DNA of 64,000 nucleotides, taken from Rickettsiales bacterium. GTDB lineage: Bacteria; Pseudomonadota; Alphaproteobacteria; Rickettsiales; UBA8987. The translations under genes were made by a program, and so were the position numbers. Numbering within the stretch: the first letter of the stretch is position 1; the number at the start of each line of letters is the position of its first letter. The notes beneath the pieces are model-generated. The model was not told the origin of the DNA and searched no databases. It was given only the letters and a program-made list of their open reading frames with translations. Shown one piece after another: positions 5,919 to 61,576 of this stretch. The stretch is from assembly GCA_965222525.1 (NCBI GenBank), contig OZ244955.1, forward strand, positions 256,025 to 320,024, written 5' to 3'.

Positions 5919-6632
5919 ATGTTTTATCAGAGAAGTGGCTTTACCGTACTGGAACTTTCGGTAGTGCTGGTCATCATTGGCTTGCTTATTGCGGGGGTGC
6001 TGGTCGGGCAGGATATGTTACGTCAGTCACGGATACAGTCGGTGGTGGTGGATATAAAAAATTTCCGCTCGGCAATCAGCCTGTTCCAGGAGCAGTACAA
6101 TGACCTGCCTGGTGATATTACTGACGCTTTTGATTACTGGGATACGGACTGCGCAGCTACCGCTGCAGCATGTAATGGTGATGGTGATGGTGCTATAGAG
6201 GAAGATGATGACGCAGCGGATACAAAGGAGGCTCTAAAACTATGGCAACAGCTTGTTCTAGCCAAGCAAATGCCCGGTAACTATACGGGAGTAGATGCCG
6301 GAGTACCTGATGTGCAAATTGAAGTTAATGCGCCTCCTTCAAAGATTCCTGAAGGTGGGTATTTGCCAGTAAATGCCACAGTATATACCGAAACCGACAA
6401 TTTTATTGCCTTTGGCTCGGAGAGGAACGATGCAGTTGAAGGTGAAGTGGTTAATGCCCTGGAGGCATGGCAGATTGACAACAAGATGGATGACGGCAAG
6501 GCGGCGGAAGGTGGCGTGCTGACGCTTGACGGTAGCGGAGAAACCGGCTGTATAGATACATTACCAAACCCTGATATATACGATCAGGATAATGAAGATA
6601 TAAAATGCCGGATGTTTTTTAAGATTTATTAA
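5919..6632 (+). CDS. Prepilin-type N-terminal cleavage/methylation domain protein (type IV pilin / pseudopilin-like), paralog A
   Basis: 237 aa. MFYQRSG/FTVLELSVVLVIIGLLIAGV has Gly at -1, Phe at +1 and Glu at +5. An acidic GDGDG segment and two Cys pairs are present. Confidence 0.75.
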   Translation: MFYQRSGFTVLELSVVLVIIGLLIAGVLVGQDMLRQSRIQSVVVDIKNFRSAISLFQEQYNDLPGDITDAFDYWDTDCAATAAACNGDGDGAIEEDDDAADTKEALKLWQQLVLAKQMPGNYTGVDAGVPDVQIEVNAPPSKIPEGGYLPVNATVYTETDNFIAFGSERNDAVEGEVVNALEAWQIDNKMDDGKAAEGGVLTLDGSGETGCIDTLPNPDIYDQDNEDIKCRMFFKIY

Positions 6633-6633
6633 A

Positions 6634-6729
6634 CCTCCCCCGCTTGCGGGGAAGGCAGGAAATTCGAGGAAACCATATCCTCCGTAGCTTTAGCGTAGGA
6701 GGATTGCTTCCCGAATTTCTGGTGGGGGA
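6634..6729. repeat. Palindromic repeat family C, full copy
   Basis: CCTCCCCCGCTTGCGGGG...GAAATTCGAGGAA...central hairpin...TTCCCGAATTTCTGGTGGGGGA. The same about 96-bp unit recurs at 9457-9552, and a deleted inverted form at 9635-9701. Confidence 0.85.
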
Positions 6730-6740
6730 ATCCACACTTC

Positions 6741-8481: not shown

Positions 8482-8686
8482 GGAGGGATGAGACCGCCCG
8501 ACCGTCGACTCTGTAATTCCTCGCGAGACCTGTATGTACAGGTGGGCGCCATATCACAAAAGCCATAGTCCAGGATTTACAAAATGTTACCTGAGCTAAC
8601 GCTACTTTTGTCAGGGACAGCTCCCTTCGAGAAAACGTTGCCTCCGGGAAAAAGCTATCTAACGTACCAGGCAGCTTCCTCACCCC
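8482..8686 (-). ncRNA. ssrS: Candidate 6S RNA
   Basis: Non-coding stretch immediately upstream of ygfA on the same strand, the conserved ssrS-ygfA arrangement. The 5' GGGGUGAG..GCUGCC pairs with the 3' GGCGGUCUCAUCCC as a closing stem. An internal ACAAAAG/CUUUUGU helix gives a long irregular hairpin. Ends are approximate. Confidence 0.45.
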
Positions 8687-8875: not shown

Positions 8876-9454
8876 GTGGCGTTCAATGGTGACCTGGCGG
8901 TTGATACTGAAACCCGTGGGCTGAATATCGCATTGCGTGACAGGCTGTGTGTTGTACAACTTTCCGATGGTGGTGGCAATGCGCATCTGGTACAGTTTGA
9001 CGGCGAGAACTACGATGCGCCAAATCTGCGGAAGCTGCTTGCAGATGAAGGGCGTACCAAAATCTTCCACTATGCCCGCTTTGACCTGGCTGCTATCAAG
9101 CATTACCTGGATGTTGATATCCGCAATATATATTGTACCAAAATCGCATCCCGACTGGCCCGCACCTATTCCGACAAGCACGGGCTGAAGGAGTTATGCA
9201 AGGAATTTCTGGGGGTGGATTTATCCAAGCAGCAGCAATCCTCATATTGGGGGGCGAAGGATTTATCCAAGGCGCAGATAAGTTATGCCGCAGCAGATGT
9301 ATTATATCTCCATAAGTTGCGGGACAAGCTTAATGTAATACTTGAGGATGATAACCGCATTGAACTGGCACAGCAATGTTTTGACTGCCTGCCCGCCCGT
9401 GTTGCACTGGACTTGCAAGGCTGGAGCGATACTGATATATTCTCGCATAATTAG
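8876..9454 (+). CDS. DEDD-family 3'-5' exonuclease (small RNase D-like)
   Basis: 192 aa, GTG start. Carries LAVDTETRGL (Exo I), FHYARFDLAAI (Exo II) and YAAADVLYLHKL (Exo III). Confidence 0.75.
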   Translation: MAFNGDLAVDTETRGLNIALRDRLCVVQLSDGGGNAHLVQFDGENYDAPNLRKLLADEGRTKIFHYARFDLAAIKHYLDVDIRNIYCTKIASRLARTYSDKHGLKELCKEFLGVDLSKQQQSSYWGAKDLSKAQISYAAADVLYLHKLRDKLNVILEDDNRIELAQQCFDCLPARVALDLQGWSDTDIFSHN

Positions 9455-9456
9455 AA

Positions 9457-9701
9457 CCCCTCCCGCTTGCGGGAGGGGAGAAAATCTGAGGAAACCATAT
9501 CTTCCGTAGCTTTAGCGCAGGAGGATTGTTTCCCGGATTTTCGGGGAGGGAATGATGAAGTGCTGAGTGTTTAGTGCTGAGTGTTTTCAACAGGAGACCT
9601 AGCACTCAACACTCCGCACTTTGCACTTACCGTATTCCCCCACCAGAAATTCGGGAATTAAAATTCCTCGAATTTCTTGCCTCCCCCGCAAGCGGGGGAG
9701 G
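9457..9701. repeat. Composite of nested repeats: family C copy, a second small palindrome, and an inverted deleted family C copy
   Basis: 9457-9552 is family C. 9558-9620 has AGTGCTGAGTGTT...AGCACTCAACACT inverted repeats. 9635-9701 is a reverse-orientation family C lacking the central hairpin. Confidence 0.8.
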
Positions 9702-9745
9702 TGTACAGTAGAATTAACCTGCCCAGCCATTACACACCCCCTCCC

Positions 9746-14151: not shown

Positions 14152-14298
14152 TGTCATGCTGAACTCGTTTCAGCATTCATCTGTCATAATCCTAAGACTG
14201 GCAATTGTGACGGAGTTTACCAAAATACATAGAACTGGTTATCTGTGATCAATACTGGTCATTGGATAAATAGATCCCGAAACAAGTTCGGGATGACA
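14152..14298. repeat. MITE-like element, family A
   Basis: TGTCATGCTGAACTCGTTTCAGCATTCAT ... GATCCCGAAACAAGTTCGGGATGACA terminal inverted repeats; 147 bp. Confidence 0.85.
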
Positions 14299-22442: not shown

Positions 22443-23141
22443 TCATCTCCCGCCGAATCGCCGCTCCCTGTTGTTAAACTCATCGACCGCCTTGCCCAAC
22501 TCGTTCTTGTCAAAATCAGGCCATAAGGTCTCGGTAAAATATAACTCGGTATAGGCCGACTGCCATAACAGAAAATTACTTATACGCTGTTCCCCACCGG
22601 TACGAATCAGCAAGTCGGGGTCGGGGATATCCCTCGTATACAGACAGGACGCAACCAGTTCCTCATTTACACCATCAACACTCACATTCCCCGCCTTGAC
22701 ATCTTCTGCAATTCTCCTCGCCGCATATGCGATTTCCTGACGCCCACCATAGCTTAGCGCCAGATTGAGATACCCCTCATCATTCGCTTCCGTTAACTTC
22801 TCAATATACGATATGCGCCCCAGAATATCATCACTAAACTTCTGTTTATCACCAACAATCCTTATCCTTATACCCTTGTCATGCAGCTTGTTAATCTCCT
22901 TGTCACTGCCCAGATAATGGCGCAGCAGGTTCATCAAATCCTCGACTTCATCCTGTGGCCTGCCCCAGTTCTCCGAAGAAAACGCATATAGAGTCAGGTA
23001 TTTTATCCCGAAATCCCTGCAGGCCTGTATGGTTTTTTTCGCCGCCTCCGCACCCTGCCTGTGTCCGGCAAGCAGCGGCATACGCCTTGCCTTTGCCCAG
23101 CGTCCGTTTCCATCCATTATAATTGCTACATGATTCAGCAT
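22443..23141 (-). CDS. uppS: Undecaprenyl diphosphate synthase
   Basis: HVAIIMDGNGRWA, TLYAFSSENW and RTGGEQRISNFLLWQ motifs. Confidence 0.95.
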   Translation of the reverse strand: MLNHVAIIMDGNGRWAKARRMPLLAGHRQGAEAAKKTIQACRDFGIKYLTLYAFSSENWGRPQDEVEDLMNLLRHYLGSDKEINKLHDKGIRIRIVGDKQKFSDDILGRISYIEKLTEANDEGYLNLALSYGGRQEIAYAARRIAEDVKAGNVSVDGVNEELVASCLYTRDIPDPDLLIRTGGEQRISNFLLWQSAYTELYFTETLWPDFDKNELGKAVDEFNNRERRFGGR

Positions 23142-23251
23142 TACATCCCTAAGATACCCTCTAAAATTATATGCAATAAATCTTCTTGTATACTTCTAAA
23201 ATTTTCTGCTATAAAGGTGCCGGTTGTGAAACTTTTTAATCGGAGGAACAA

Positions 23252-23776: not shown

Positions 23777-24916
23777 GTGGCTATGTTTAGAGGGGTGAAG
23801 TCGGCTACATTGCCTGTATTGTTGTGTGGTGTGTGTGCCGTAAGTGCGGCGCAGGCACAGGATTTCGAACAACAGCGGGTTGAAGACCGTATTATTAAGC
23901 TTGAAAAGCAGATTAACCTGCTGGAGCGGGCGTTTTTCAAGAAACAGGAATTATCGGGTAGTGCCGCCTCTGCGGATGGGGAGGACGGTGCTGTGGAGTC
24001 TCGTATATCCACGCTTGAAACTACAATGCGTGACTTAAGAGGCAAAATAGAAGAGCTTGAGCATGAGAATTTCCTGCTCAAGGCGAAGATTGCTAGGGCT
24101 CCCGGCAATGCGGGTAATATTACGCTCGGGGCAGCAAATGTCGGTAATTCTGAAACGGTTTCAAGTGAGATTGTAACAGTTTATGAAAATCCGGATGCAG
24201 CAGAATTACCTGAAAAGCAACGTCCGGTAAAAACTTCCGCAGTTGCAACTCCGGTTACGAAGCCTCCGGTTCCTGCTTCAATGAGCGGCAGGAAGAATGT
24301 ATTTCAGAAACCGGCTGAAATTGTTAAAAAAGGCAGTGGTATTGCGGCAGCGGCAGATAATAATGCGAAGTCTGGTGCGAAGCCAGGAGTACCGACCGAA
24401 AAGGCAACCGTCAGCGAAACTATCGTAACGGAATATTCCGATTACAGCGGTCCGATAAATCTGGGAAATGCGGAGCCGGCAGCTGGTAATACTGATAATG
24501 TAACGACGGCAGGTTCATCAAAGCCGGAAAGTGCCAAGGAACAATATGACTGGGCATTGTCGCTGATTACTGAAGCGAAATATAGCGATGCGGCGCTGGC
24601 ATTCCATCAGTTTGTCAATGACCACCCCAATACTGAAATGACCGGTAATGCCTATTACTGGCTGGCGGAAACCTACTATGTGCGTGGGGATTTCGAGCAG
24701 GCATCGGTATATTTTCTCGAAGGGTACAAGAAATTCCCTGAAAGCAGCAAGGCAGCGGATAATCTGCTGAAACTGGCTATATCACTTGGCAATACCGGCA
24801 AGAAAAAAGAGGCCTGTATTTCGTTTGACAAGCTGAGTAACGAGTTTCCATCTGCTTCCAGCGCAATAAAAAACCGCTCAAAAAAAGAGAGTGCAAGACT
24901 GGAGTGCAGTGGCTAG
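23777..24916 (+). CDS. cpoB: Tol-Pal associated cell-division coordinator CpoB (YbgF)
   Basis: Signal peptide, N-terminal coiled coil, and C-terminal TPR region (GNAYYWLAETYYVRGDFEQA...AADNLLKLAISLG). Directly downstream of pal. Confidence 0.8.
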   Translation: MAMFRGVKSATLPVLLCGVCAVSAAQAQDFEQQRVEDRIIKLEKQINLLERAFFKKQELSGSAASADGEDGAVESRISTLETTMRDLRGKIEELEHENFLLKAKIARAPGNAGNITLGAANVGNSETVSSEIVTVYENPDAAELPEKQRPVKTSAVATPVTKPPVPASMSGRKNVFQKPAEIVKKGSGIAAAADNNAKSGAKPGVPTEKATVSETIVTEYSDYSGPINLGNAEPAAGNTDNVTTAGSSKPESAKEQYDWALSLITEAKYSDAALAFHQFVNDHPNTEMTGNAYYWLAETYYVRGDFEQASVYFLEGYKKFPESSKAADNLLKLAISLGNTGKKKEACISFDKLSNEFPSASSAIKNRSKKESARLECSG

Positions 24917-26258
24917 CAATCCTCTAGACATCGCTGTGCAGTCTGTGGACAGGGCTATGGCAGCCGGAGCCGATGCAGCGGATGTGGTGGTATTCGGCAG
25001 TAATGATGTAAATGTGCGTGAGCGGCTGGGCAAGCCGGAAACTATAGAGCGCTCCGAGTCCAGGGATTTGGGGTTGCGTGTGTTTGTAAAAGGCAGGGAC
25101 GGACTGCAACAGGCGATAATTTCCTCCAATGATTTTTCCGAAAATTCGCTGACAGAAACCGTCAGCCGTGCGGTGGATATGGCGAAGGCTGCTCCTGCCG
25201 ACCCTTACAGCGGATTGGCACCATCGGAATTACTGGTAAAAAATACACCGGAGCTTGATATATGCGATGCGGATGAAGTGTCGGTTGAAACGCTGAAGCA
25301 ATGGGCGGCAGAGGCCGAGGAGGCTGCGCTTGCGGTTAAGGGCGTTACCAATTCCGAAGGCTCCGAGGCCAGCTATGGCAGGGATAGCGTAGCGCTGGCC
25401 ACCAGTAACGGTTTTGCCCACCAATATACCACCACCGGTTTTTCCATATCAGCCTCGGTTATTGCCGGTGAGGGAACGGCGATGGAAACCGATTACGACT
25501 ATGCGTTCAAGCGCCATATCGAGGATTTGAAAAAACCGGCAGATATAGGTAAAAGCGCGGGTGAGCGGGCGGTACGACGGCTTAATCCGCACAAGGCGGG
25601 AAGTTGCCAGGTGCCGGTAATTTATGAATCGCGGGTGGCCAAAAGCCTTCTGGGTTCCTTTGCCGGTGCGATTAACGGTGCGTCGATAGCGCGCGGAACC
25701 AGCTTCCTGAAAGACAAGATGAATCAGCAGGTTTTTGCGGATGACATCAATATAACAGACGATCCGCTGATGAAACGTGGTATTGCCTCCGAGCCGTTTG
25801 ATGGCGAGGGGGTAGCCGGCAAAAAGCGCAGCCTGATAGAAAACGGTACGCTTACTACATGGCTGCTTGATATACGTTCCGCCAACAAGCTTGGCCTGCA
25901 GACCACCGGCCATGCCTCGCGCAGCACATCATCCCCGCCCAGCCCCGGTTCCAGCAATCTATACATGGAAGCGGGCAGGCATTCAGTGACAGAACTGGTT
26001 GCCGATATTAAAAGCGGATTCTATATCACCGAAGCGTTCGGTATGGGGGTGAATGGCGTAACCGGTGACTACAGCCAGGGAGCCAGCGGGTTCTGGATAG
26101 AAAATGGCGAGATAACTTATCCGGTTAGCGAAGTGACCATAGCCGGCAACCTGACCGATATGTTCAAGAACCTCACCCCTGCCAATGATCTGGAGATGCT
26201 ATACGGCACCAACTCCCCTACCCTCCGCATAGAAGGCATGACCGTTGCAGGTGCCTGA
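24891..26258 (+). CDS. pmbA: PmbA/TldE-family metalloprotease component
   Basis: 455 aa. The TldD/PmbA family pattern runs from N- to C-terminus (GADAADVVV...LGLRVFVKG...GHASRS...SNLYMEAG...YPVSEVTIAGN). Confidence 0.8.
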   Translation: MQDWSAVASNPLDIAVQSVDRAMAAGADAADVVVFGSNDVNVRERLGKPETIERSESRDLGLRVFVKGRDGLQQAIISSNDFSENSLTETVSRAVDMAKAAPADPYSGLAPSELLVKNTPELDICDADEVSVETLKQWAAEAEEAALAVKGVTNSEGSEASYGRDSVALATSNGFAHQYTTTGFSISASVIAGEGTAMETDYDYAFKRHIEDLKKPADIGKSAGERAVRRLNPHKAGSCQVPVIYESRVAKSLLGSFAGAINGASIARGTSFLKDKMNQQVFADDINITDDPLMKRGIASEPFDGEGVAGKKRSLIENGTLTTWLLDIRSANKLGLQTTGHASRSTSSPPSPGSSNLYMEAGRHSVTELVADIKSGFYITEAFGMGVNGVTGDYSQGASGFWIENGEITYPVSEVTIAGNLTDMFKNLTPANDLEMLYGTNSPTLRIEGMTVAGA

Positions 26259-26568
26259 GAGGGTATCTAAATTCTACTAGCATGGCCTGCAAATAACTGT
26301 TTCCTGCGCTTCCGTTGCTCACGTACGAAAAAAGTACGCTGCGCTACAGTTCTCGGAAACAATTATTTTCGCCACATGCTAGCGAATTTATAGTCGTTCC
26401 AAATAATTTCCGTGTATTTTACAACCAGCTAGATTTGTATTAGAGCAAGTGAAATTTCGCAGCTCGTAGTTTACCCTACTTGCAAGAAATTTACACGCAG
26501 CTATAAGGCAAATTGAGCAGTTACAAAATACACGGAAATTATTTGGAACGACTATAGATACCCTCTCA
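26257..26568. repeat. Family D palindromic element interrupted by a nested IS630-type MITE
   Basis: The outer arms GAGAGGGTATC (26257-26267) and GATACCCTCTC (26557-26567) are reverse complements. The D core at 26269-26388 has AAATTC.CTAGCATG ends. It is related to copies at 42945-43086 and 41101-41137. Confidence 0.8.
26389..26556. mobile_element. IS630-derived MITE (168 bp) nested in family D element
   Basis: TIRs are TATAGTCGTTCCAAATAATTTCCGTGTATTTT ... AAAATACACGGAAATTATTTGGAACGACTATA. They are near-identical to the TIRs of the IS630 remnant at 57991-58684. The element is bounded by TA. Confidence 0.8.
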
Positions 26569-26574
26569 ATATTC

Positions 26575-27486
26575 TTATAATTTCCGCCGAACACCCAAAA
26601 TATGACACACGGCGCTTACCAGAAGCGGGCGGTTGAGGGTATAGAAATGGAAATGGTCAACCCCCTCCTCGCGCAGGATTCTGCACTGTTCCGCCGCTAT
26701 CATCGCTGATACTATATTACGCATTTTCGGGTTATTGTCAATTCCACCCAGCAGGTTATGCACCCATTCCGGCACTGTAGCCTGACATTTTTTACAAAAA
26801 TTCAGAAACATCGAAAAGTTCGATACCAGCGGGATACCCGGAATAATCGGCACATTAACCCCTGCCGCAGCAGCCTTGTCACGAAAATCCAGAAACAGCC
26901 CGGTATCAAAGAAAAGCTGGGTAATTGCGCGGTCAACACCAATATCCGTCTTCTGTTTGAGATATTCCAGGTCTTTCTCGGCACTTTCCGCCTCGGGATG
27001 CACCTCGGGAAAACAGGCCACGGAAATCTCAAAATCCGCTATATTTTTCAAACCTTTAACCAGATCAGCGCAATAAGCATAACCATCCGGATGCGGTATA
27101 TATTTTCCCGCCTGGCCAGCATCTTCGGGCGGGTCACCACGCAGTGCCACTATATGCTTTATACCGGAATCCCAGTATTCACGGGCAATATCGTCAATCT
27201 CCCCGCGGCTTGCCCCTACACATGTCAGATGCACCGCCGGAGTCAGCGAAGTTTCGTCCCTGATGCGCTTTACCGTATTATATGTACGCTCACGGGTACT
27301 CCCCCCCGCACCGTAAGTAACCGATACAAATTTCGGCTGTAACGCCTCCAGCTCCTTGATGGTATTCCATAAAACCTGCTCTGCCTCATCATCCTTCGGC
27401 GGAAAAAACTCAAAGGATACCTCCGGCGGTGGCAGCTCCAGAAACTCCTCAAACCGGGAGAGATGTTTGTTTAGTGTTTTGCTCAT
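26575..27486 (-). CDS. metF: 5,10-methylenetetrahydrofolate reductase
   Basis: VSFEFFPPK...FVSVTYGAGGSTRERT...HLTCV motifs. Confidence 0.9.
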   Translation of the reverse strand: MSKTLNKHLSRFEEFLELPPPEVSFEFFPPKDDEAEQVLWNTIKELEALQPKFVSVTYGAGGSTRERTYNTVKRIRDETSLTPAVHLTCVGASRGEIDDIAREYWDSGIKHIVALRGDPPEDAGQAGKYIPHPDGYAYCADLVKGLKNIADFEISVACFPEVHPEAESAEKDLEYLKQKTDIGVDRAITQLFFDTGLFLDFRDKAAAAGVNVPIIPGIPLVSNFSMFLNFCKKCQATVPEWVHNLLGGIDNNPKMRNIVSAMIAAEQCRILREEGVDHFHFYTLNRPLLVSAVCHILGVRRKL

Positions 27487-29860: not shown

Positions 29861-29880
29861 GGTGGCTTGTGGTAATGCAT

Positions 29881-30037
29881 TGTCACCCCGGATGGCATGC
29901 TTTCTCCAAATCTATGATTTGGCAAGAAAGCACCATTCTCGGGGTTACAGGTAAGTAACGTGAATGTGTAATAACCCCGAGAACGCTATTTTCTGACTAC
30001 ATCAAAGATGTAGAGAAAATATGCGTCCGGGGTGACA
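29881..30037. repeat. MITE-like element, family B (nested palindromes)
   Basis: TGTCACCCCGGA.GCAT...TTCTC outer TIRs, plus inner inverted repeats (CTCGGGGTTA.../...TAACCCCGAG); 157 bp. Confidence 0.85.
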
Positions 30038-30051
30038 AATTAACGTACTGG

Positions 30052-41100: not shown

Positions 41101-41137
41101 AAATTCGCCACATGCTGGCGAATTTTAAGAAACCCTC
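41101..41137. repeat. Family D element, internally deleted mini-copy
   Basis: AAATTCGCCACATGCTGGCGAATTTTAAGAAACCCTC is the two D ends joined, plus one outer arm. It lies immediately after the rpmG stop. Confidence 0.6.
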
Positions 41138-41311
41138 TTAGGACTTCAGCTTTTCTTCCTTGAACAGCACATGCTTGCGGATTACCGGATCATATTTGCG
41201 GAAGGAAAGCTTCTCCGGCTGTTTCTTGGGATTACGCTTCTTTACCAGAAAAAATCCGGTACCGGCAGTACTCACTAATTTCACCAATGTTACATTCTTC
41301 GACTTGGCCAT
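41138..41311 (-). CDS. rpmG: 50S ribosomal protein L33 (not in ORF track, 57 aa)
   Basis: My manual translation of the minus strand gives [57 protein letters not shown], which is the L33 pattern. Confidence 0.9.
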
Positions 41312-41396
41312 AGCTGTATTTTGTTTTTCGTTTCAAAAAAGAAGGGCAATTCTGCCCTCCCACCCCATATTTGTCAAGCTATTTATTGGATATTCC

Positions 41397-42863
41397 CTAG
41401 CCCTGAACCCGGTAATTGGGAGATTCCTGGGTGATGGTGACATCATGGGCGTGGCTTTCACGCAGACCGGAATTGGTAATCCGCACAAACTCGCATTTGC
41501 TTTTCATGCTTTCTATATCCGCATTGCCGGTATAGCCCATCGCCGCACGCAGGCCGCCTATCAGCTGGTGGATTACATCCGCCACCGCCCCTTTATATGG
41601 CACACGTCCTTCAACCCCTTCGGGGACAAGTTTTAGCTGGTCACTTATATCCTGCTGGAAATAGCGGTCAGCCGAACCACGCGCCATCGCCCCTACCGAA
41701 CCCATCCCGCGATAGGTTTTATATGAACGCCCCTGGTATAATATAACCTCGCCGGGGCTTTCGGAAGTTCCGGCAAATAATGAGCCAACCATTACACAAT
41801 CGGCACCGGCAGCAATAGCCTTGGCAATATCGCCGGAATATTTAATCCCGCCATCGGCAATCACCGCAATATCACGTTTTTTCGTCTCTTCAACCGCCCC
41901 CATTATAGCGCTTAATTGCGGCACACCAACTCCGGCAACAATCCTTGTAGTACAAATCGAACCCGGCCCTATACCAACTTTCACCGCATCCGCTCCGGAA
42001 TCTATCAGTGCCCTGGCACCTTCGGCGGTGGCGACATTCCCGCCGATTACAGGTATATCGCTATATTTCTTCTTTATGCGTGAAACCGTATCCAGCACCG
42101 ACTGCGCATGGCCATGTGCGGTATCAACAATAATCGTATCAACATCCGCAGCAATAAGCGCTTCCGCCCGTTCAACACCGGCATCACTGGCCCCAACCGC
42201 CGCCGCAACCCTGAGCCTCCCCTTGTCATCCTTACTGGAATTGGGGTAAAGCTGGGATTTTTCGATATCCTTAACCGTCACCAGACCTATACAATGATAA
42301 GTATCATCAACTACCAGCAGCTTCTCTATACGATGCTGGTGGAGCAGCTTCTTGGCTTCTTCCGGCGCGACACCCTCATTAACCGTCACCAGGCCGTCAC
42401 TGGTCATAAGCTCACTCACCGGCTGCTGCATATCCTGGGCAAAACGCACATCACGGTTGGTGATTATCCCCACCAGCCTGTTATCATTATCAGTAACCGG
42501 TACACCGGAAATCCGGTTGTCAAACATTATAGCCAGAACATCGGCAAGACTGGCATCAGGGCGGGTAGTGATAGGGTCAACCACCATGCCGGATTCGAAT
42601 TTCTTTACCTTGCGGACTTCCTCCGCCTGCTCCTCTATCGAAAGATTCTTGTGTATGCAGCCGATACCGCCATTCTGTGCCATGGCAATGGCCAGTTCAC
42701 TTTCGGTTACGGTATCCATTGCGGCGGATATAAGGGGAATGCCGAGATTCATACCGGCAACAAGGCGAGTGGAAATGTCTGTCCCCGACGGGTGAATATC
42801 AGAAGCAGCGGGCTTTAGCAGTACATCATCAAATGTAAGTGATTCTTTTAATTCAATTGCCAT
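41397..42863 (-). CDS. guaB: IMP dehydrogenase
   Basis: I prefer the Met at 42863 ([18 protein letters not shown]). CBS pair present. Catalytic [11 protein letters not shown] loop. Confidence 0.95.
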
Positions 42864-42944
42864 TTTGCCTGGTTTATTTTTCCACTCCATAAGGAGGCGC
42901 TTTAGCCAAGGTAACCCAGATATTTCATATTAGATTTCCCCGGA

Positions 42945-43086
42945 GGGATTTCTTAAAATTCGCTAGCATGAGGCGAAAATGGCTGTTTTCGAGAACCGTA
43001 CTGCATCGTACTTAAGGGTACGTGAAGCACGGAAGCGCAGAAAACAGTTATTTGCAGCCCATGATAGTAGAATTTGAAGAAATCCC
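42945..43086. repeat. Family D palindromic element, intact copy
   Basis: GGGATTTCTT AAAATTCGCTAGCATG ... CATGATAGTAGAATTT G AAGAAATCCC. Opposite orientation to the 26257 copy. It abuts the stop codon of the 43086 gene. Confidence 0.8.
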
Positions 43087-43388
43087 TAGGCCTCTTCCAG
43101 CTCTTCCTCCTTGCCCACTTCCTGTGCCATCTGCTTGCGCTCCTTGGCGGTAAGCTTGGACATTTTCTGCTGTTCCGTATCCCAGCGATATTGCGTCACT
43201 ATCACCCTGGTGCCGGTAGTAACAACGTCGCCATTTTCAAGCTGCAATACATCAAAACCCTTCTGCAGGGCTTCCGATATAATGGCCGAGGAATGGCGCA
43301 GATATTCGGGATTGAGCATCAAATCATCCCCACCGCTATCCCGTTCCGTTTCCTTTATCCGTTTGAGAGAGTCTTTAATTGGATCCAT
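43086..43388 (-). CDS. Hypothetical conserved-looking small acidic protein (100 aa)
   Basis: I prefer the Met at 43388 (AAGGAG RBS). MDPIKDSLKRIKETERDSGGDD...; no recognisable domain. Confidence 0.55.
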   Translation of the reverse strand: MDPIKDSLKRIKETERDSGGDDLMLNPEYLRHSSAIISEALQKGFDVLQLENGDVVTTGTRVIVTQYRWDTEQQKMSKLTAKERKQMAQEVGKEEELEEA

Positions 43389-43564
43389 AGCTTTACTCCT
43401 TGAATAATGTGGTTGCGACCCCACTATAGAAACCTGAAGGTCTCCATATCCGTATATTCTACAATCTAAGGTATCCTGTTACAATAAAACAAGCAACACT
43501 GCAACAAATATGGCACGTTATAACCTGTTTTTTTATATAAATCTATATGTAAAATTTTTCTGAT

Positions 43565-53702: not shown

Positions 53703-53860
53703 TGTCACCCCGGACGCATATTTTCTCTGAATCTTTGATTCAGTCAGAAAATAGCGTTCACGGGGTTATTGCGTAGTCACGTACTGTTGCTTATAACCCC
53801 GAGAATGGTGTTTTCTTAGCGAAATCAAAGATTTCGAGAAAACATCCATCCGGGGTGACA
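53703..53860. repeat. MITE-like element, family B
   Basis: TGTCACCCCGGACGCATATTTTCTC ... GAGAAAACATCCATCCGGGGTGACA with inner CACGGGGTTAT/ATAACCCCGAG repeats; 158 bp. Confidence 0.85.
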
Positions 53861-57733: not shown

Positions 57734-57990
57734 AAAGTTTTCCTTGTTATTAAGAGATATGGGTTAAAATGTATAACCAGAATACCACAAGATAGTTAAC
57801 AAACAATTAATAAGTCATAAAAAATGCAGCTATTTTATTAAATTCTACTAATTTTTTACTAAAAATACATTTAGTACAAAAAATAAACAAAATTCAAGAG
57901 TGTATTTTTAATTGTTCCAAATAATTACCGTATATTTTGTTATTATCCATTGGGTTATTTATTTCTGTTAATTTTACTTCATACTTTATC

Positions 57991-58684
57991 TATAGTCCTT
58001 CCAAATAACTTCCGAATAGTTTAAGATTTTTGCGGCACCATTTTGCAGGTAGTAAGATGACATATATAGTATTTCCAATTTTAATTGGGAATACTATGAA
58101 GACCTGCGAAGCAGGGATTCCACCGCGCAAGCGAGTGTAATTTTACTTACGTAAAATTAGAAAATACTATAGTATTGATTTGTGCGAACGAGTTGTATCG
58201 TTTGTTTCTGGTGGTGGCAGCAAGCTTGAGGCCTCTCGTCGCTTTTCGGTCAGCGTCTGGTGCGTCAATGACTGGTGGTCTCGGGATGATTTACACCCCA
58301 AACCGCATGGTCGCAGACAGCGCAAACTGAACAGGGACGCTGTTAAGCGTCATTTCGAAGTTGTGTCCAAAATCTACTATAATTATGGACAATGCCGCAT
58401 TCCACAAAAAGAAGGATATTGTGGAGATGGCTGAAAAAGCAGGGCATGAAGCCATTTTCCTGCCTCCGTATTCACCAGACTTTAATCCCTTCGGGTATAA
58501 TTCCCCGCCCCTTGGGGCGAAAGAATAATATAATCCGAACTGATGCCCCGTAGCTTGCTACGGGGTAGTTCATTCCAATCGAAAAAGTCTTCGCTCATCT
58601 CAAAAAACAAAGGGCAAACGCTCCGCTTGGAAAACCAATCGACGACATAATCAAGTCATACGGAAATTATTTGGAAGGACTATA
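57991..58684 (+). mobile_element. Degraded IS630/Tc1-mariner-family insertion sequence (transposase pseudogene with internal deletion, frameshift and MITE insertions)
   Basis: Left TIR TATAGTCCTTCCAAATAACTTCCGAATAG at 57991; right TIR CGGAAATTATTTGGAAGGACTATA ending at 58684. An HTH-like N-terminal ORF spans 58180..58434. In another frame lies MDNAAFHKKKDIVEMAEKAGHEAIFLPPYSPDFNP (58385-58489). IEKVFAHLKKQRAN resumes at 58578 after an about 88-bp hairpin-rich insert. Total length is 694 bp. Confidence 0.75.
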
Positions 58685-59431: not shown

Positions 59432-60697
59432 ATGGATCAATTAAAAAAGACTTTACTTCTGGGTGCTTCGGCACTCGCTCTTGCTGTTACACCTGCATTT
59501 GCGGACGATAACGTAGATGACGGTATTGATGGCAATGAAAACAATGACAATACTGTTAACCAGGTTGGAGATGACAACAACTCTAACAATGGTGGCGGTA
59601 ATGACAACAACACCTCTGATAATGGAAATGACAATAACACTTCCGATAACGGAAATGATAACAACACTTCCAATAACGGAGATGACAACAATGACGGCAA
59701 TACTGTTGCTTCCGGCAATGGTTCTGGCGACGATGACAACGAAAACAATGCATTCTCCAAGAATGACATTGATACCGATGTTGACGCTTCTGACAATTCA
59801 GACAACAGCAATGACGGCAATGATAACAACACCTCTAATAATGGTGATGATAACAATGACGGCAATACTGTTGCTTCCGGTAACGGTGCTGGTGATGACG
59901 ACAACGAAAACAACGCTTTCTCCAAAAACGATGTAGACGTTGATGTTGACGCTTCTGATAACTCAGATAACTCCAATGACGGAAATGATAACAACACTTC
60001 CAACAATGGAGATGACAACAATGATGGTAACACCATTGCATCTGACAACACCTCCAATGACGGAAATGATAACAACACTTCCAACAACGGAGATGATAAC
60101 AATGATGGTAACACCATTGCTTCCGGTAACGATGCTGGTGACGACAACAACGAAAACAATGCATTCTCCAAGAATGACATTGATACCGATGTTGACGCTT
60201 CAGACAACAGCACCGGAAAAGGTGATGACAACAACGAAAGCAATGCATTCTCCAAGAATGACGTAGACGTTGATGCATCTGACAACTCTGATAATTCAGA
60301 CAACAGCACCGGTAAAGGCGATGATAACAACGAAACCAACGCCTTCTCCAAGAATGATGTTGATGTGAATGCCAGTGAAAATAATATGAATTCCAAAAAC
60401 ACTGACAACAGCACCAACACACTTACTGACAACAGCACTGACAGCAGCCAGGATGACAGCGTAAGCTTCGGCGATGCTAAAACCCTGACAGCTTCTGTTC
60501 TGGATGCTTCTGTTTCCGGAAACTCTGTTACAGTAGCAGTTGGTGGTGCCAGAAGAATTGGCGTCTATGAAGCTGACAACACCATCCAGGGAGATGCTTT
60601 CCGCAACTCCAGAGGTGTTAATGCTAACGCACAAAACACTGGTAACAGTGCAAGCGTTCAGCAAGCTATTACTATCAAGGCTGACATCCATAACTAG
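59432..60697 (+). CDS. Secreted Asp/Asn-rich tandem-repeat protein with C-terminal Gly/Asn/Gln module (P1)
   Basis: AAGGAG RBS. Signal peptide MDQLKKTLLLGASALALAVTPAFA. Five copies of N.NAFSKND[IV]D.DVDASDNS embedded in DNNTSNNGDDNNDGNT units. C-terminus DNTIQGDAFRNSRGVNANAQNTGNSASVQQAITIKADIHN. Confidence 0.8.
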   Translation: MDQLKKTLLLGASALALAVTPAFADDNVDDGIDGNENNDNTVNQVGDDNNSNNGGGNDNNTSDNGNDNNTSDNGNDNNTSNNGDDNNDGNTVASGNGSGDDDNENNAFSKNDIDTDVDASDNSDNSNDGNDNNTSNNGDDNNDGNTVASGNGAGDDDNENNAFSKNDVDVDVDASDNSDNSNDGNDNNTSNNGDDNNDGNTIASDNTSNDGNDNNTSNNGDDNNDGNTIASGNDAGDDNNENNAFSKNDIDTDVDASDNSTGKGDDNNESNAFSKNDVDVDASDNSDNSDNSTGKGDDNNETNAFSKNDVDVNASENNMNSKNTDNSTNTLTDNSTDSSQDDSVSFGDAKTLTASVLDASVSGNSVTVAVGGARRIGVYEADNTIQGDAFRNSRGVNANAQNTGNSASVQQAITIKADIHN

Positions 60698-61511: not shown

Positions 61512-61576
61512 TGTCACCCCGGACGCATATTTTCTCCAAATCGGAGATTTGGAGAAAATATGCGTCCGGGGTGACA
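61512..61576. repeat. Family B mini-copy (outer TIR hairpin only)
   Basis: TGTCACCCCGGACGCATATTTTCTCCAAATCGGAGATTTGGAGAAAATATGCGTCCGGGGTGACA; 65 bp. Confidence 0.85.

Follow-up and report, generated by a model that had tools for sequence, protein, structure and literature searches.

What lies between the convergent genes pmbA and metF in a Rickettsiales bacterium, one repeat or two, and in what order did the parts arrive? We analysed a stretch of 64,000 nucleotides (nt) from this genome (assembly GCA_965222525.1, contig OZ244955.1, positions 256,025 to 320,024 of the forward strand; hereafter the window, with positions counted from its first letter). A sequence-only reading had proposed that a palindromic repeat at this locus, named family D, was interrupted by a miniature inverted-repeat transposable element (MITE) of IS630 type. 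The best explanation as a whole, which we hold at a probability of about 0.8, is that the D copy was present first, that the IS630-type MITE later nested within it, that the outer arms of the block are D's own and that D is a mobile family. The outer element matters more than the nesting: it lies at gene ends in a fixed orientation, its stems covary, its pairing appears to be selected on one strand, and it matches no Rfam family.

Evidence for a MITE nested within a family D hairpin

The locus is laid out as follows, copy 1 being the D copy between pmbA and metF.

24891–26258, plus strand: pmbA/tldE-type metallopeptidase open reading frame (ORF), from the ORF list and Pfam (PmbA_TldD 1st, 2nd and 3rd domains, E = 5e-80)
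26256–26390, plus strand: left and main part of family D copy 1, which takes in the left basal stem, the imperfect hairpin of the conserved core and the first part of the right basal stem
26389–26390: left TA of the target-site duplication of the MITE, read from the sequence
26391–26554: probable IS630-derived MITE, 164 bp, with terminal inverted repeats (TIRs) at 26391–26420 and 26525–26554 (inverted-repeat search, BLAST and TIR alignment)
26555–26556: right TA of the target-site duplication, read from the sequence
26557–26568, plus strand: right end of family D copy 1, the right basal stem GATACCCTCTCA, pushed away by the MITE
26575–27486, minus strand: metF (methylenetetrahydrofolate reductase, MTHFR) ORF, from the ORF list and Pfam, convergent with pmbA

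The ORFs and Pfam assignments bear out the placing of the block between convergent pmbA and metF. The TGA stop of pmbA (26256–26258) is shared with the first bases of the D basal stem, and the metF stop lies 7 nt beyond the right end of D. The left arm, TGAGAGGGTATC (26256–26267), is perfectly complementary to the right arm (26557–26568), and between the two lie an imperfect palindrome of about 120 bp, the D core, and then a second palindromic element. The D core (26268–26390) is 83% identical to 42956–43075 on the opposite strand, as found by BLAST within the window. Taken together, the two parts of copy 1 (26256–26390 and 26557–26568) make an imperfect hairpin of 147 bp.

The MITE sits at a TA in the right basal stem of D, 12 nt from the D end. 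In silico removal of 26391–26556 gave a 147-bp D hairpin with an uninterrupted 18-bp stem, GAGAGGGTATCTAAATTC/GAATTTAGATACCCTCTC, and the insert was present in 0 of about 70 other family D copies examined (copy 2 of the window, a metagenome-assembled genome (MAG), plasmids and viral contigs). Because these copies lack the insert, because the MITE has perfect TIRs, IS630-type ends and a TA duplication of its own, and because its excision restores the stem, comparison of the sequences gives good support to the order originally proposed, in which D was present first and the MITE inserted later at a TA inside it. That the MITE ends are perfect and the duplication intact suggests that the insertion was recent. 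The MITE would have been moved in trans by an IS630 cut-and-paste transposase, now probably left only as a remnant in the window. The nested insertion is an event of an ordinary kind; it gives clean relative dating and shows that IS630-type elements were recently active in an alphaproteobacterial genome that is small and rich in repeats, a result that is useful but routine. The wider claim that the IS630 family was active after the MITE expansion is shown for this single D copy only.

The block, 326 nt as folded, forms a Y composed of an outer stem, the D hairpin and the MITE hairpin (−136 kcal/mol, z = −13.7). Beyond this compact fold, nothing speaks for the idea that a 312-bp block is one composite repeat spreading as a unit, and we consider it extremely improbable: the roughly 70 insert-free copies lack the 164-bp part, that part brings its own perfect TIRs, TA duplication and IS630-type ends, and a search of the plasmid collection found no match to the MITE. 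On the two points that the sequence-only reading had named as able to overturn the proposed order, the 312-bp block was not found conserved as a unit, and the likeness of the TIRs to IS630 is supported by alignment, as described below.

Origin of the inner element

The MITE measures 164 bp and is bounded by identical 30-nt TIRs, TAGTCGTTCCAAATAATTTCCGTGTATTTT; it had first been given as 168 bp with 32-nt TIRs, a length that is reached only when both flanking TAs are counted. The sole ORF across it, of 68 codons, has no homologue, and the element has no transposase coding capacity. The closest relatives of its ends are those of an IS630-family insertion sequence (IS) remnant in the window, near which a further end of the same lineage was found.

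57897–57940, minus strand: degenerate solo end (TIR) belonging to this IS630/MITE lineage and situated some 50 bp upstream of the remnant (BLAST and TIR alignment)
57993–58682, plus strand: IS630-family remnant, internally deleted, with TA at 57991–57992 and 58683–58684 (Pfam HTH_Tnp_IS630 and DDE_3 on translated fragments)

Within the window, the MITE ends match both ends of the remnant over 24–27 nt at 96% identity (E ~1e-6). The match between the TA-bounded MITE and the IS630 remnant, as first noted, was thereby confirmed, with the limits of the remnant refined to 57993–58682. A full two-ORF IS630-type IS from a metagenome (L010/L011; HTH_Tnp_IS630 and DDE_3) has the ends TA-TAGTCATTT...AATGACTA-TA, also read as TA-TAGTCATTTAAAATAATTTCC...GGAAATTATTTGAAATGACTA-TA, and so shares the TA-TAGTC...GACTA-TA architecture of the MITE; over the C-terminal half of the remnant query, its queried DDE ORF shows 75% identity. 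The MITE ends, the window remnant and this full IS (L011) were brought together in a seven-way TIR alignment; an intact IS of the MITE's type would be expected to have TAGTCGTTCC ends. The right end of the IS codes for the transposase C-terminus (...YGNYLK, then stop), and the MITE end still reads ...HGNYLERL, then stop. Judged by these ends, the inner element is in all probability an IS630-derived MITE, formed by internal deletion of an IS630-family IS.

In its 30-nt perfect IS630-type TIRs, its TA duplication and its lack of a transposase, the inner element resembles known bacterial MITEs derived from IS630/Tc1-mariner elements, as it does in an end that still codes for C-terminal transposase residues. 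It differs in having one complete copy in the window and no detected intact cognate IS. These differences weigh against our explanation. The 64-kb window holds only one full MITE copy and one solo end, together with one dead IS. A search for an intact IS630 copy able to move the MITE, which had been put forward as a check, did yield the full IS in a metagenome, but no intact cognate transposase from the source genome; the best match in the protein collection reached 75% identity, and the 2,114,217-bp source contig contributed none. Six-frame peptide profiles of D and the MITE found no match among 5.8 billion proteins, and a scan of the viral collection with a 17-mer of the MITE gave five single-site matches, estimated to be about the chance level.

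The remnant has itself been interrupted. An 88-bp hairpin-rich insert at 58490–58577 splits its DDE motif between ...DFNP and IE..., and because the motif is contiguous (DFNPIE) in a relative, P0121, another small element was active after the IS630 remnant copy arrived.

The outer arms and the mobility of family D

Whose are the arms? The sequence-only reading had left two options: that the arms belong to family D, or that D targets the loops of terminator hairpins. Two further D sequences in the window bear on this.

41101–41138, minus strand: truncated D remnant (mini-copy), with one basal-stem arm and the terminal ~25 nt, directly after the stop of rpmG (L33)
42944–43087, minus strand: uninterrupted D copy 2, 144 bp, with arms AGGGATTTCTT/AAGAAATCCCT, upstream of guaB

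Copy 2 had been described as an intact element at 42945–43086 with outer arms at a stop codon; this stands, with the ends refined to 42944–43087 and the left end overlapping the TAG stop of a DUF2671 gene (43086–43424, minus strand). The position of the mini-copy after the rpmG stop (previously 41101–41137) was likewise upheld. The mini-copy flank GAGGGTTTCTTA is identical to the copy 2 arm GAGGGATTTCTTA at 12 of 13 positions, and the copy 1 arm, GAGGGTATCTA, is a further variant. Outside the window, the S. indicum arm TAGGGTGTATCGACATTCAG resembles the copy 1 arm TGAGAGGGTATCTAAATTCTAC, and a Mesorhizobium copy (L029) has the ends AAATTCTAC/GCGAATTT (...GGAAATTCTAC...GCGAATTT...); both bridge the GC-rich forms of the arm to TGAGAGGGTATCTAAATTCTAC of copy 1. 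Between Shinella and Sphingobium copies, identity is 85–87% across all 143 nt and takes in the outer stem.

Filled and empty sites were found at two loci. Between an isocitrate-lyase-family gene and an ABC permease gene of Agrobacterium vitis, the site is filled in strains S4 and CG78 and empty in VAT03-9, in F2/5 and in VAR03-1, which is more diverged; filled and empty sites differ by 142 bp, the whole hairpin with its arms, and the empty site, AAAATCTGACCGTTTG, contains no palindrome. At the second locus, in Sphingobium ‘Tom’ strains, five plasmids are filled and four are empty, with a difference of 144 bp that again includes the arms. At the etfB–etfA junction, the Aminobacter and Rhizobium copies differ by compensatory arm changes; filled and empty alleles are too diverged there to define a target duplication. 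Because of the two presence/absence polymorphisms (+142 bp and +144 bp, arms included), we conclude that family D is mobile.

Since the arms are homologous between copies and are included in the inserted DNA at both filled/empty sites, they are D's own basal stem and not a targeted host terminator. Of the two earlier options the first thus holds, and the targeting of terminator-hairpin loops is rejected, as the empty sites have no palindrome and the arms arrive with the insert. The ends of D are the arms and not, as had been thought, the AAATTC at the limits of the core. The description of the arms as a perfect palindrome centred on CTAG keeps its perfect complementarity and loses its separate standing, the ‘palindrome’ being merely the base of D's own stem. 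Both of the checks suggested for this question point the same way: alignment of D copies with their flanks, drawn from the window, the MAG, plasmids and viral contigs, showed the arms to be part of the element, and the search for empty sites in related strains found them in A. vitis and Sphingobium, with the arms inside the insert.

A solo AGAGGGTATCTTA occurs at 23151–23163 (minus strand), just upstream of the start of ORF 22443–23141 and with no adjoining D core; 11 nt of it are identical to the copy 1 arm. It could be all that is left of a D copy, or it could match by chance.

Were the arms instead a pre-existing host palindrome, such as a bidirectional pmbA/metF terminator, into whose centre or loop a D core of ~120 bp had inserted, the empty pmbA–metF junction would already have carried GAGAGGGTATC-TA-GATACCCTCTC, a 24-bp palindrome. 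The arms do differ between the two window copies, the L002 copy has no arms, and copy 1 with its interior removed gives a perfect palindrome centred on CTAG, the preferred IS630 target. We nevertheless regard a host origin as very improbable, given that both filled/empty polymorphisms have the arms inside the insert and no palindrome at the empty site; that the arms are homologous among copy 1, copy 2, the mini-copy and the solo arm at 23151, and similar in S. indicum and Mesorhizobium; that arms also occur inside operons, where no terminator is expected (thiolase to hydroxyacyl-CoA dehydrogenase in L001; etfB–etfA); and that no T-run follows the hairpins. A scan for an intrinsic terminator, that is, a GC-rich hairpin with a T-run, gave only a weak internal site, and the flanks of 48 copies held no T-runs; because no T-run follows the hairpin, D is not an intrinsic terminator. 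The nearest MetF protein found is only 67% identical, so there was no close relative in which to compare an empty pmbA–metF site.

Breadth and anatomy of family D

When representative genomes were scanned with the D end pattern, a Rickettsiales MAG proved to have two full copies (L001 and L002); the one other match looked like chance. BLAST of D against plasmids matched the central ~90 nt at 76–81% identity in Sphingobium, Shinella, Agrobacterium/Allorhizobium, Phyllobacterium and others, and the Shinella copy, used as query in its turn, reached 92 places in 35 records (rhizobial and sphingomonad plasmids). A scan of the viral collection with the core 19-mer GCTTCCGGTGCTCACGTAC recovered 48 exact copies on 45 contigs, with fewer than one expected by chance (an estimate); the phage collection gave no match to D. 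The D copies of the window are thus diverged members of a family present in many Alphaproteobacteria, and through this one conserved hairpin a Rickettsiales-like genome that branches deeply is linked to plasmids of rhizobia and sphingomonads.

Alignments of plasmid, MAG, viral and window copies define a nearly invariant core of ~85 nt that folds as an irregular hairpin (...CTGCAAAT..TTTTCTGCGCTTCCGGTGCTCACGTAC-loop-GTACGCTGCGCTCCGGTTCTCGGAAA..ATTTTCGCC...). The basal stem varies in sequence from copy to copy and is always self-complementary, the commonest termini being TAGGRCC...GGYCCTA. Total length is mostly 141–148 bp, with a second class near 120 bp. No Rfam family matched D at or above its gathering threshold, the only hits on D and the MITE being sub-threshold and to generic hairpins (miRNA precursors). 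The open-access literature, searched with exact core sequences included, gave no description of family D, which may be described elsewhere; the family is apparently undescribed.

Two coding explanations were rejected: a small conserved ORF in D is interrupted by stops in Rickettsiales-type copies, and read-through in the frame of the upstream gene is contradicted by a frame that differs between copies.

Other inserts and arrangements were seen among family members. The same ~30-nt hairpin, TTGAAGCGAGTCACGYGCCTCGCTTCAA, is inserted in the core of unrelated D copies on S. indicum plasmid pSRL1 (L030, ~1165–1200) and on a viral-collection contig (L042, ~1930–1965), and the L027 copy carries a different small insert; nested hairpins therefore recur in family D. 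Some contigs have two D hairpins in the order gene–hairpin–gene–hairpin (L078, 1928–2050 and 2872–2992; L051; L064; and 41101–43087 of the window), and such pairs after neighbouring ORFs bear a superficial resemblance to a cassette array.

The sole metagenome match to the D end pattern is a spacer of a clustered regularly interspaced short palindromic repeat (CRISPR) array (L004, 296–325; JABLTQ010020400.1) with 47-nt repeats, GTTGTTTTCAATGGTTCAAAGATACTAATTTGAAAGCAAATCACAAC, which we take to resemble Bacteroidetes type II-C repeats. The spacer is identical to the end of window copy 2 at 24 of 24 nt, with about one chance pattern match estimated for a collection of that size; that the match falls in a spacer is remarkable all the same. 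D-type sequences may ride on targeted mobile DNA, and the spacer, together with the D copies on viral-collection contigs, would fit horizontal spread on mobile DNA.

Position, strand and structure

Copies were oriented by their core, and on viral contigs gene ends were taken from raw ORFs of at least 80 codons. In 16 of 22 plasmid and window copies and in 21 of 48 viral-contig copies, the left end of D overlaps the stop of such an ORF or is separated from it by no more than a few bases; for the right end the figures are 3/22 and 3/48 at most, respectively. Copies 1 and 2 of the window and the L001 and L002 copies follow the rule, and the orientation of D relative to the upstream ORF is almost always the same.

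Of the two strands, it is the one antisense to the upstream ORF that has the more stable fold, in 18/18 and 45/48 copies. Wobble-type transitions show the same asymmetry both in the variable basal stems (82 on the antisense strand against 15 on the sense strand, p = 2e-12) and in the core (103 against 17), and G.U pairs number 193 on the antisense and 35 on the sense strand. From the usual deamination bias, which affects the non-transcribed or leading strand, one would expect the asymmetry to run the other way. A consensus structure from a 49-copy alignment has 39 pairs, with 91.1% of cells paired as against 75.6% when shuffled and 33–40% when slid; compensatory change occurs at 33 of the 39 pairs, a level reached by 0/500 shuffles. 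From these patterns we infer that pairing in D has been selected on one strand only, that antisense to the upstream ORF.

What family D may be

With its ends least conserved, its orientation to ORFs fixed and its pairing selected on one strand, D is not a typical MITE. Because pairing appears to be selected on one strand only, D may act or move in a single-stranded form, either as bottom-strand DNA or as antisense RNA, in which case its recognition would depend on the conserved core and on shape, and not on terminal sequence. We find a structure-defined element of this kind plausible, though at somewhat less than even odds. More specific, and correspondingly more tentative, is the proposal that D is a new kind of mobile element or recombination site of the Alphaproteobacteria, defined by its structure, with a hairpin of ~145 nt, an invariant irregular core, a basal stem free to vary, pairing selected on the bottom strand, insertion at ORF 3′ ends in one orientation and mobility that does not depend on conserved terminal repeats. 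Such an element would be a functional analogue of attC or REPIN, handled by a putative single-strand-specific enzyme. There are points against a single-stranded mechanism. Copies within the family are related, so that the orientation and wobble counts are not fully independent and their statistics overstate independence; and in Sphingobium the inserted D is flanked on each side by TA (or TAG), of which the empty allele has one copy.

That duplication is what would be expected if D were an ordinary double-stranded cut-and-paste MITE, moved by a DDE transposase in trans with a TA/TAG duplication, and if its position, orientation and strand bias came from selection on the transcribed hairpin after insertion. 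Many GC-rich copies are also bounded by TA...TA, and in a TAA or TAG stop there is a TA at which insertion restores a stop codon, so that the site would be neutral. We think this possible but doubtful. The A. vitis event left no clean TA duplication (1 nt exactly duplicated, or TGA on the left against TTA on the right, with one mismatch), and the wobble bias favours the strand that is not mRNA. The conserved TIRs expected of a conventional MITE with TIRs and a target-site duplication were not seen in D: its termini are the most variable part and its centre is nearly invariant, the reverse of TIRs recognised by a transposase. A search for an autonomous partner found no IS with D ends, the truncated copy H62 being a D fragment and not an IS end.

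D might instead serve chiefly as a functional RNA or a cis-regulatory module, for instance as a small antisense RNA, as an element that stabilises 3′ ends or takes part in their processing, or as insulation from antisense transcription. Selection would then maintain it, and it would travel with genes and now and then be duplicated, without being a selfish transposon. Such a role would account for a core conserved across orders with its internal loops and bulges, for compensatory evolution at the shared etfB–etfA locus, and for the fixed orientation to ORFs and one-stranded G.U bias. We judge it unlikely that this is mainly what D is: the distribution is patchy and presence differs between strains of one species, copies follow unrelated genes with several per replicon, no promoter or terminator features and no Rfam family were found, and the strand that folds better is not cotranscribed with the neighbouring gene. 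If D is a recombination or transposition substrate, it would point to a new single-strand DNA mobility system in Alphaproteobacteria; taken as an RNA element, D is a 3′-end module that is widespread and unannotated. Both ideas can be tested directly, since filled and empty alleles occur naturally in culturable strains of Agrobacterium vitis and Sphingobium.

Comparison with known systems

REP/REPIN elements with their RAYT proteins, and the IS200/IS605 elements, share with D a structure-defined extragenic hairpin repeat, a strand-specific constraint and, in one of the two D insertions, the lack of a clean duplication. The conserved part of D is, in contrast, an irregular centre of ~85 nt and not a 20–40-nt REP with a GTAG-type head; D is a single hairpin of ~145 nt, and one of its insertions fits a TA duplication. 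Neither a RAYT nor a TnpA gene was linked to D, although no systematic or RAYT-aimed search was made.

The attC sites of integrons are alike in several respects. D stands directly after or overlapping an ORF stop in fixed orientation, has a length within the attC range, and forms an imperfect hairpin with conserved unpaired bases whose bottom strand folds better and is apparently the one selected. D nevertheless has no RYYYAAC/GTTRRRY (R''/R') boxes at the hairpin base, and its termini vary; its centre is conserved and its base variable, where attC shows the reverse. D copies are scattered after housekeeping genes and not gathered in arrays adjoining an integrase, although neighbours were not screened for integrases; in the window they follow pmbA, the DUF2671 gene and rpmG. 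Integrons have been reported as absent from Alphaproteobacteria.

ERIC, Correia, RUP/SPRITE and RPE elements are, like D, hairpin repeats of 100–170 bp in or next to transcription units; several are flanked by TA and have orientation-dependent effects on RNA, and RPEs occur in Rickettsiales. Their termini are conserved and those of D are not, and D showed no sequence similarity to them in the collections searched, which included no RPE consensus. RPEs insert in frame inside genes, whereas D lies just after the stop; the plasmid BLAST of D gave no Rickettsia match. SPRITE is terminator-like, whereas D has no T-run.

Other repeats and RNAs in the window

The window is unusually rich in MITE-like DNA. 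Further palindromic or short dispersed repeats form at least three families unrelated to D: 29880–30038, 53703–53860 and 61512–61576; 6628–6731, 9450–9553 and 9664–9705; and repeats of ~30–40 nt at 14260, 31577, 35131, 43565, 44910, 60952 and 62300. A 6S (SsrS) RNA gene at 8487–8680 on the minus strand (58.7 bits) is the only above-threshold Rfam match in the window. ORF 59432–60697 contains internal tandem or dispersed repeats of ~80–160 nt at 59636–60372, with 67–89% identity, which points to a repeat-containing protein.

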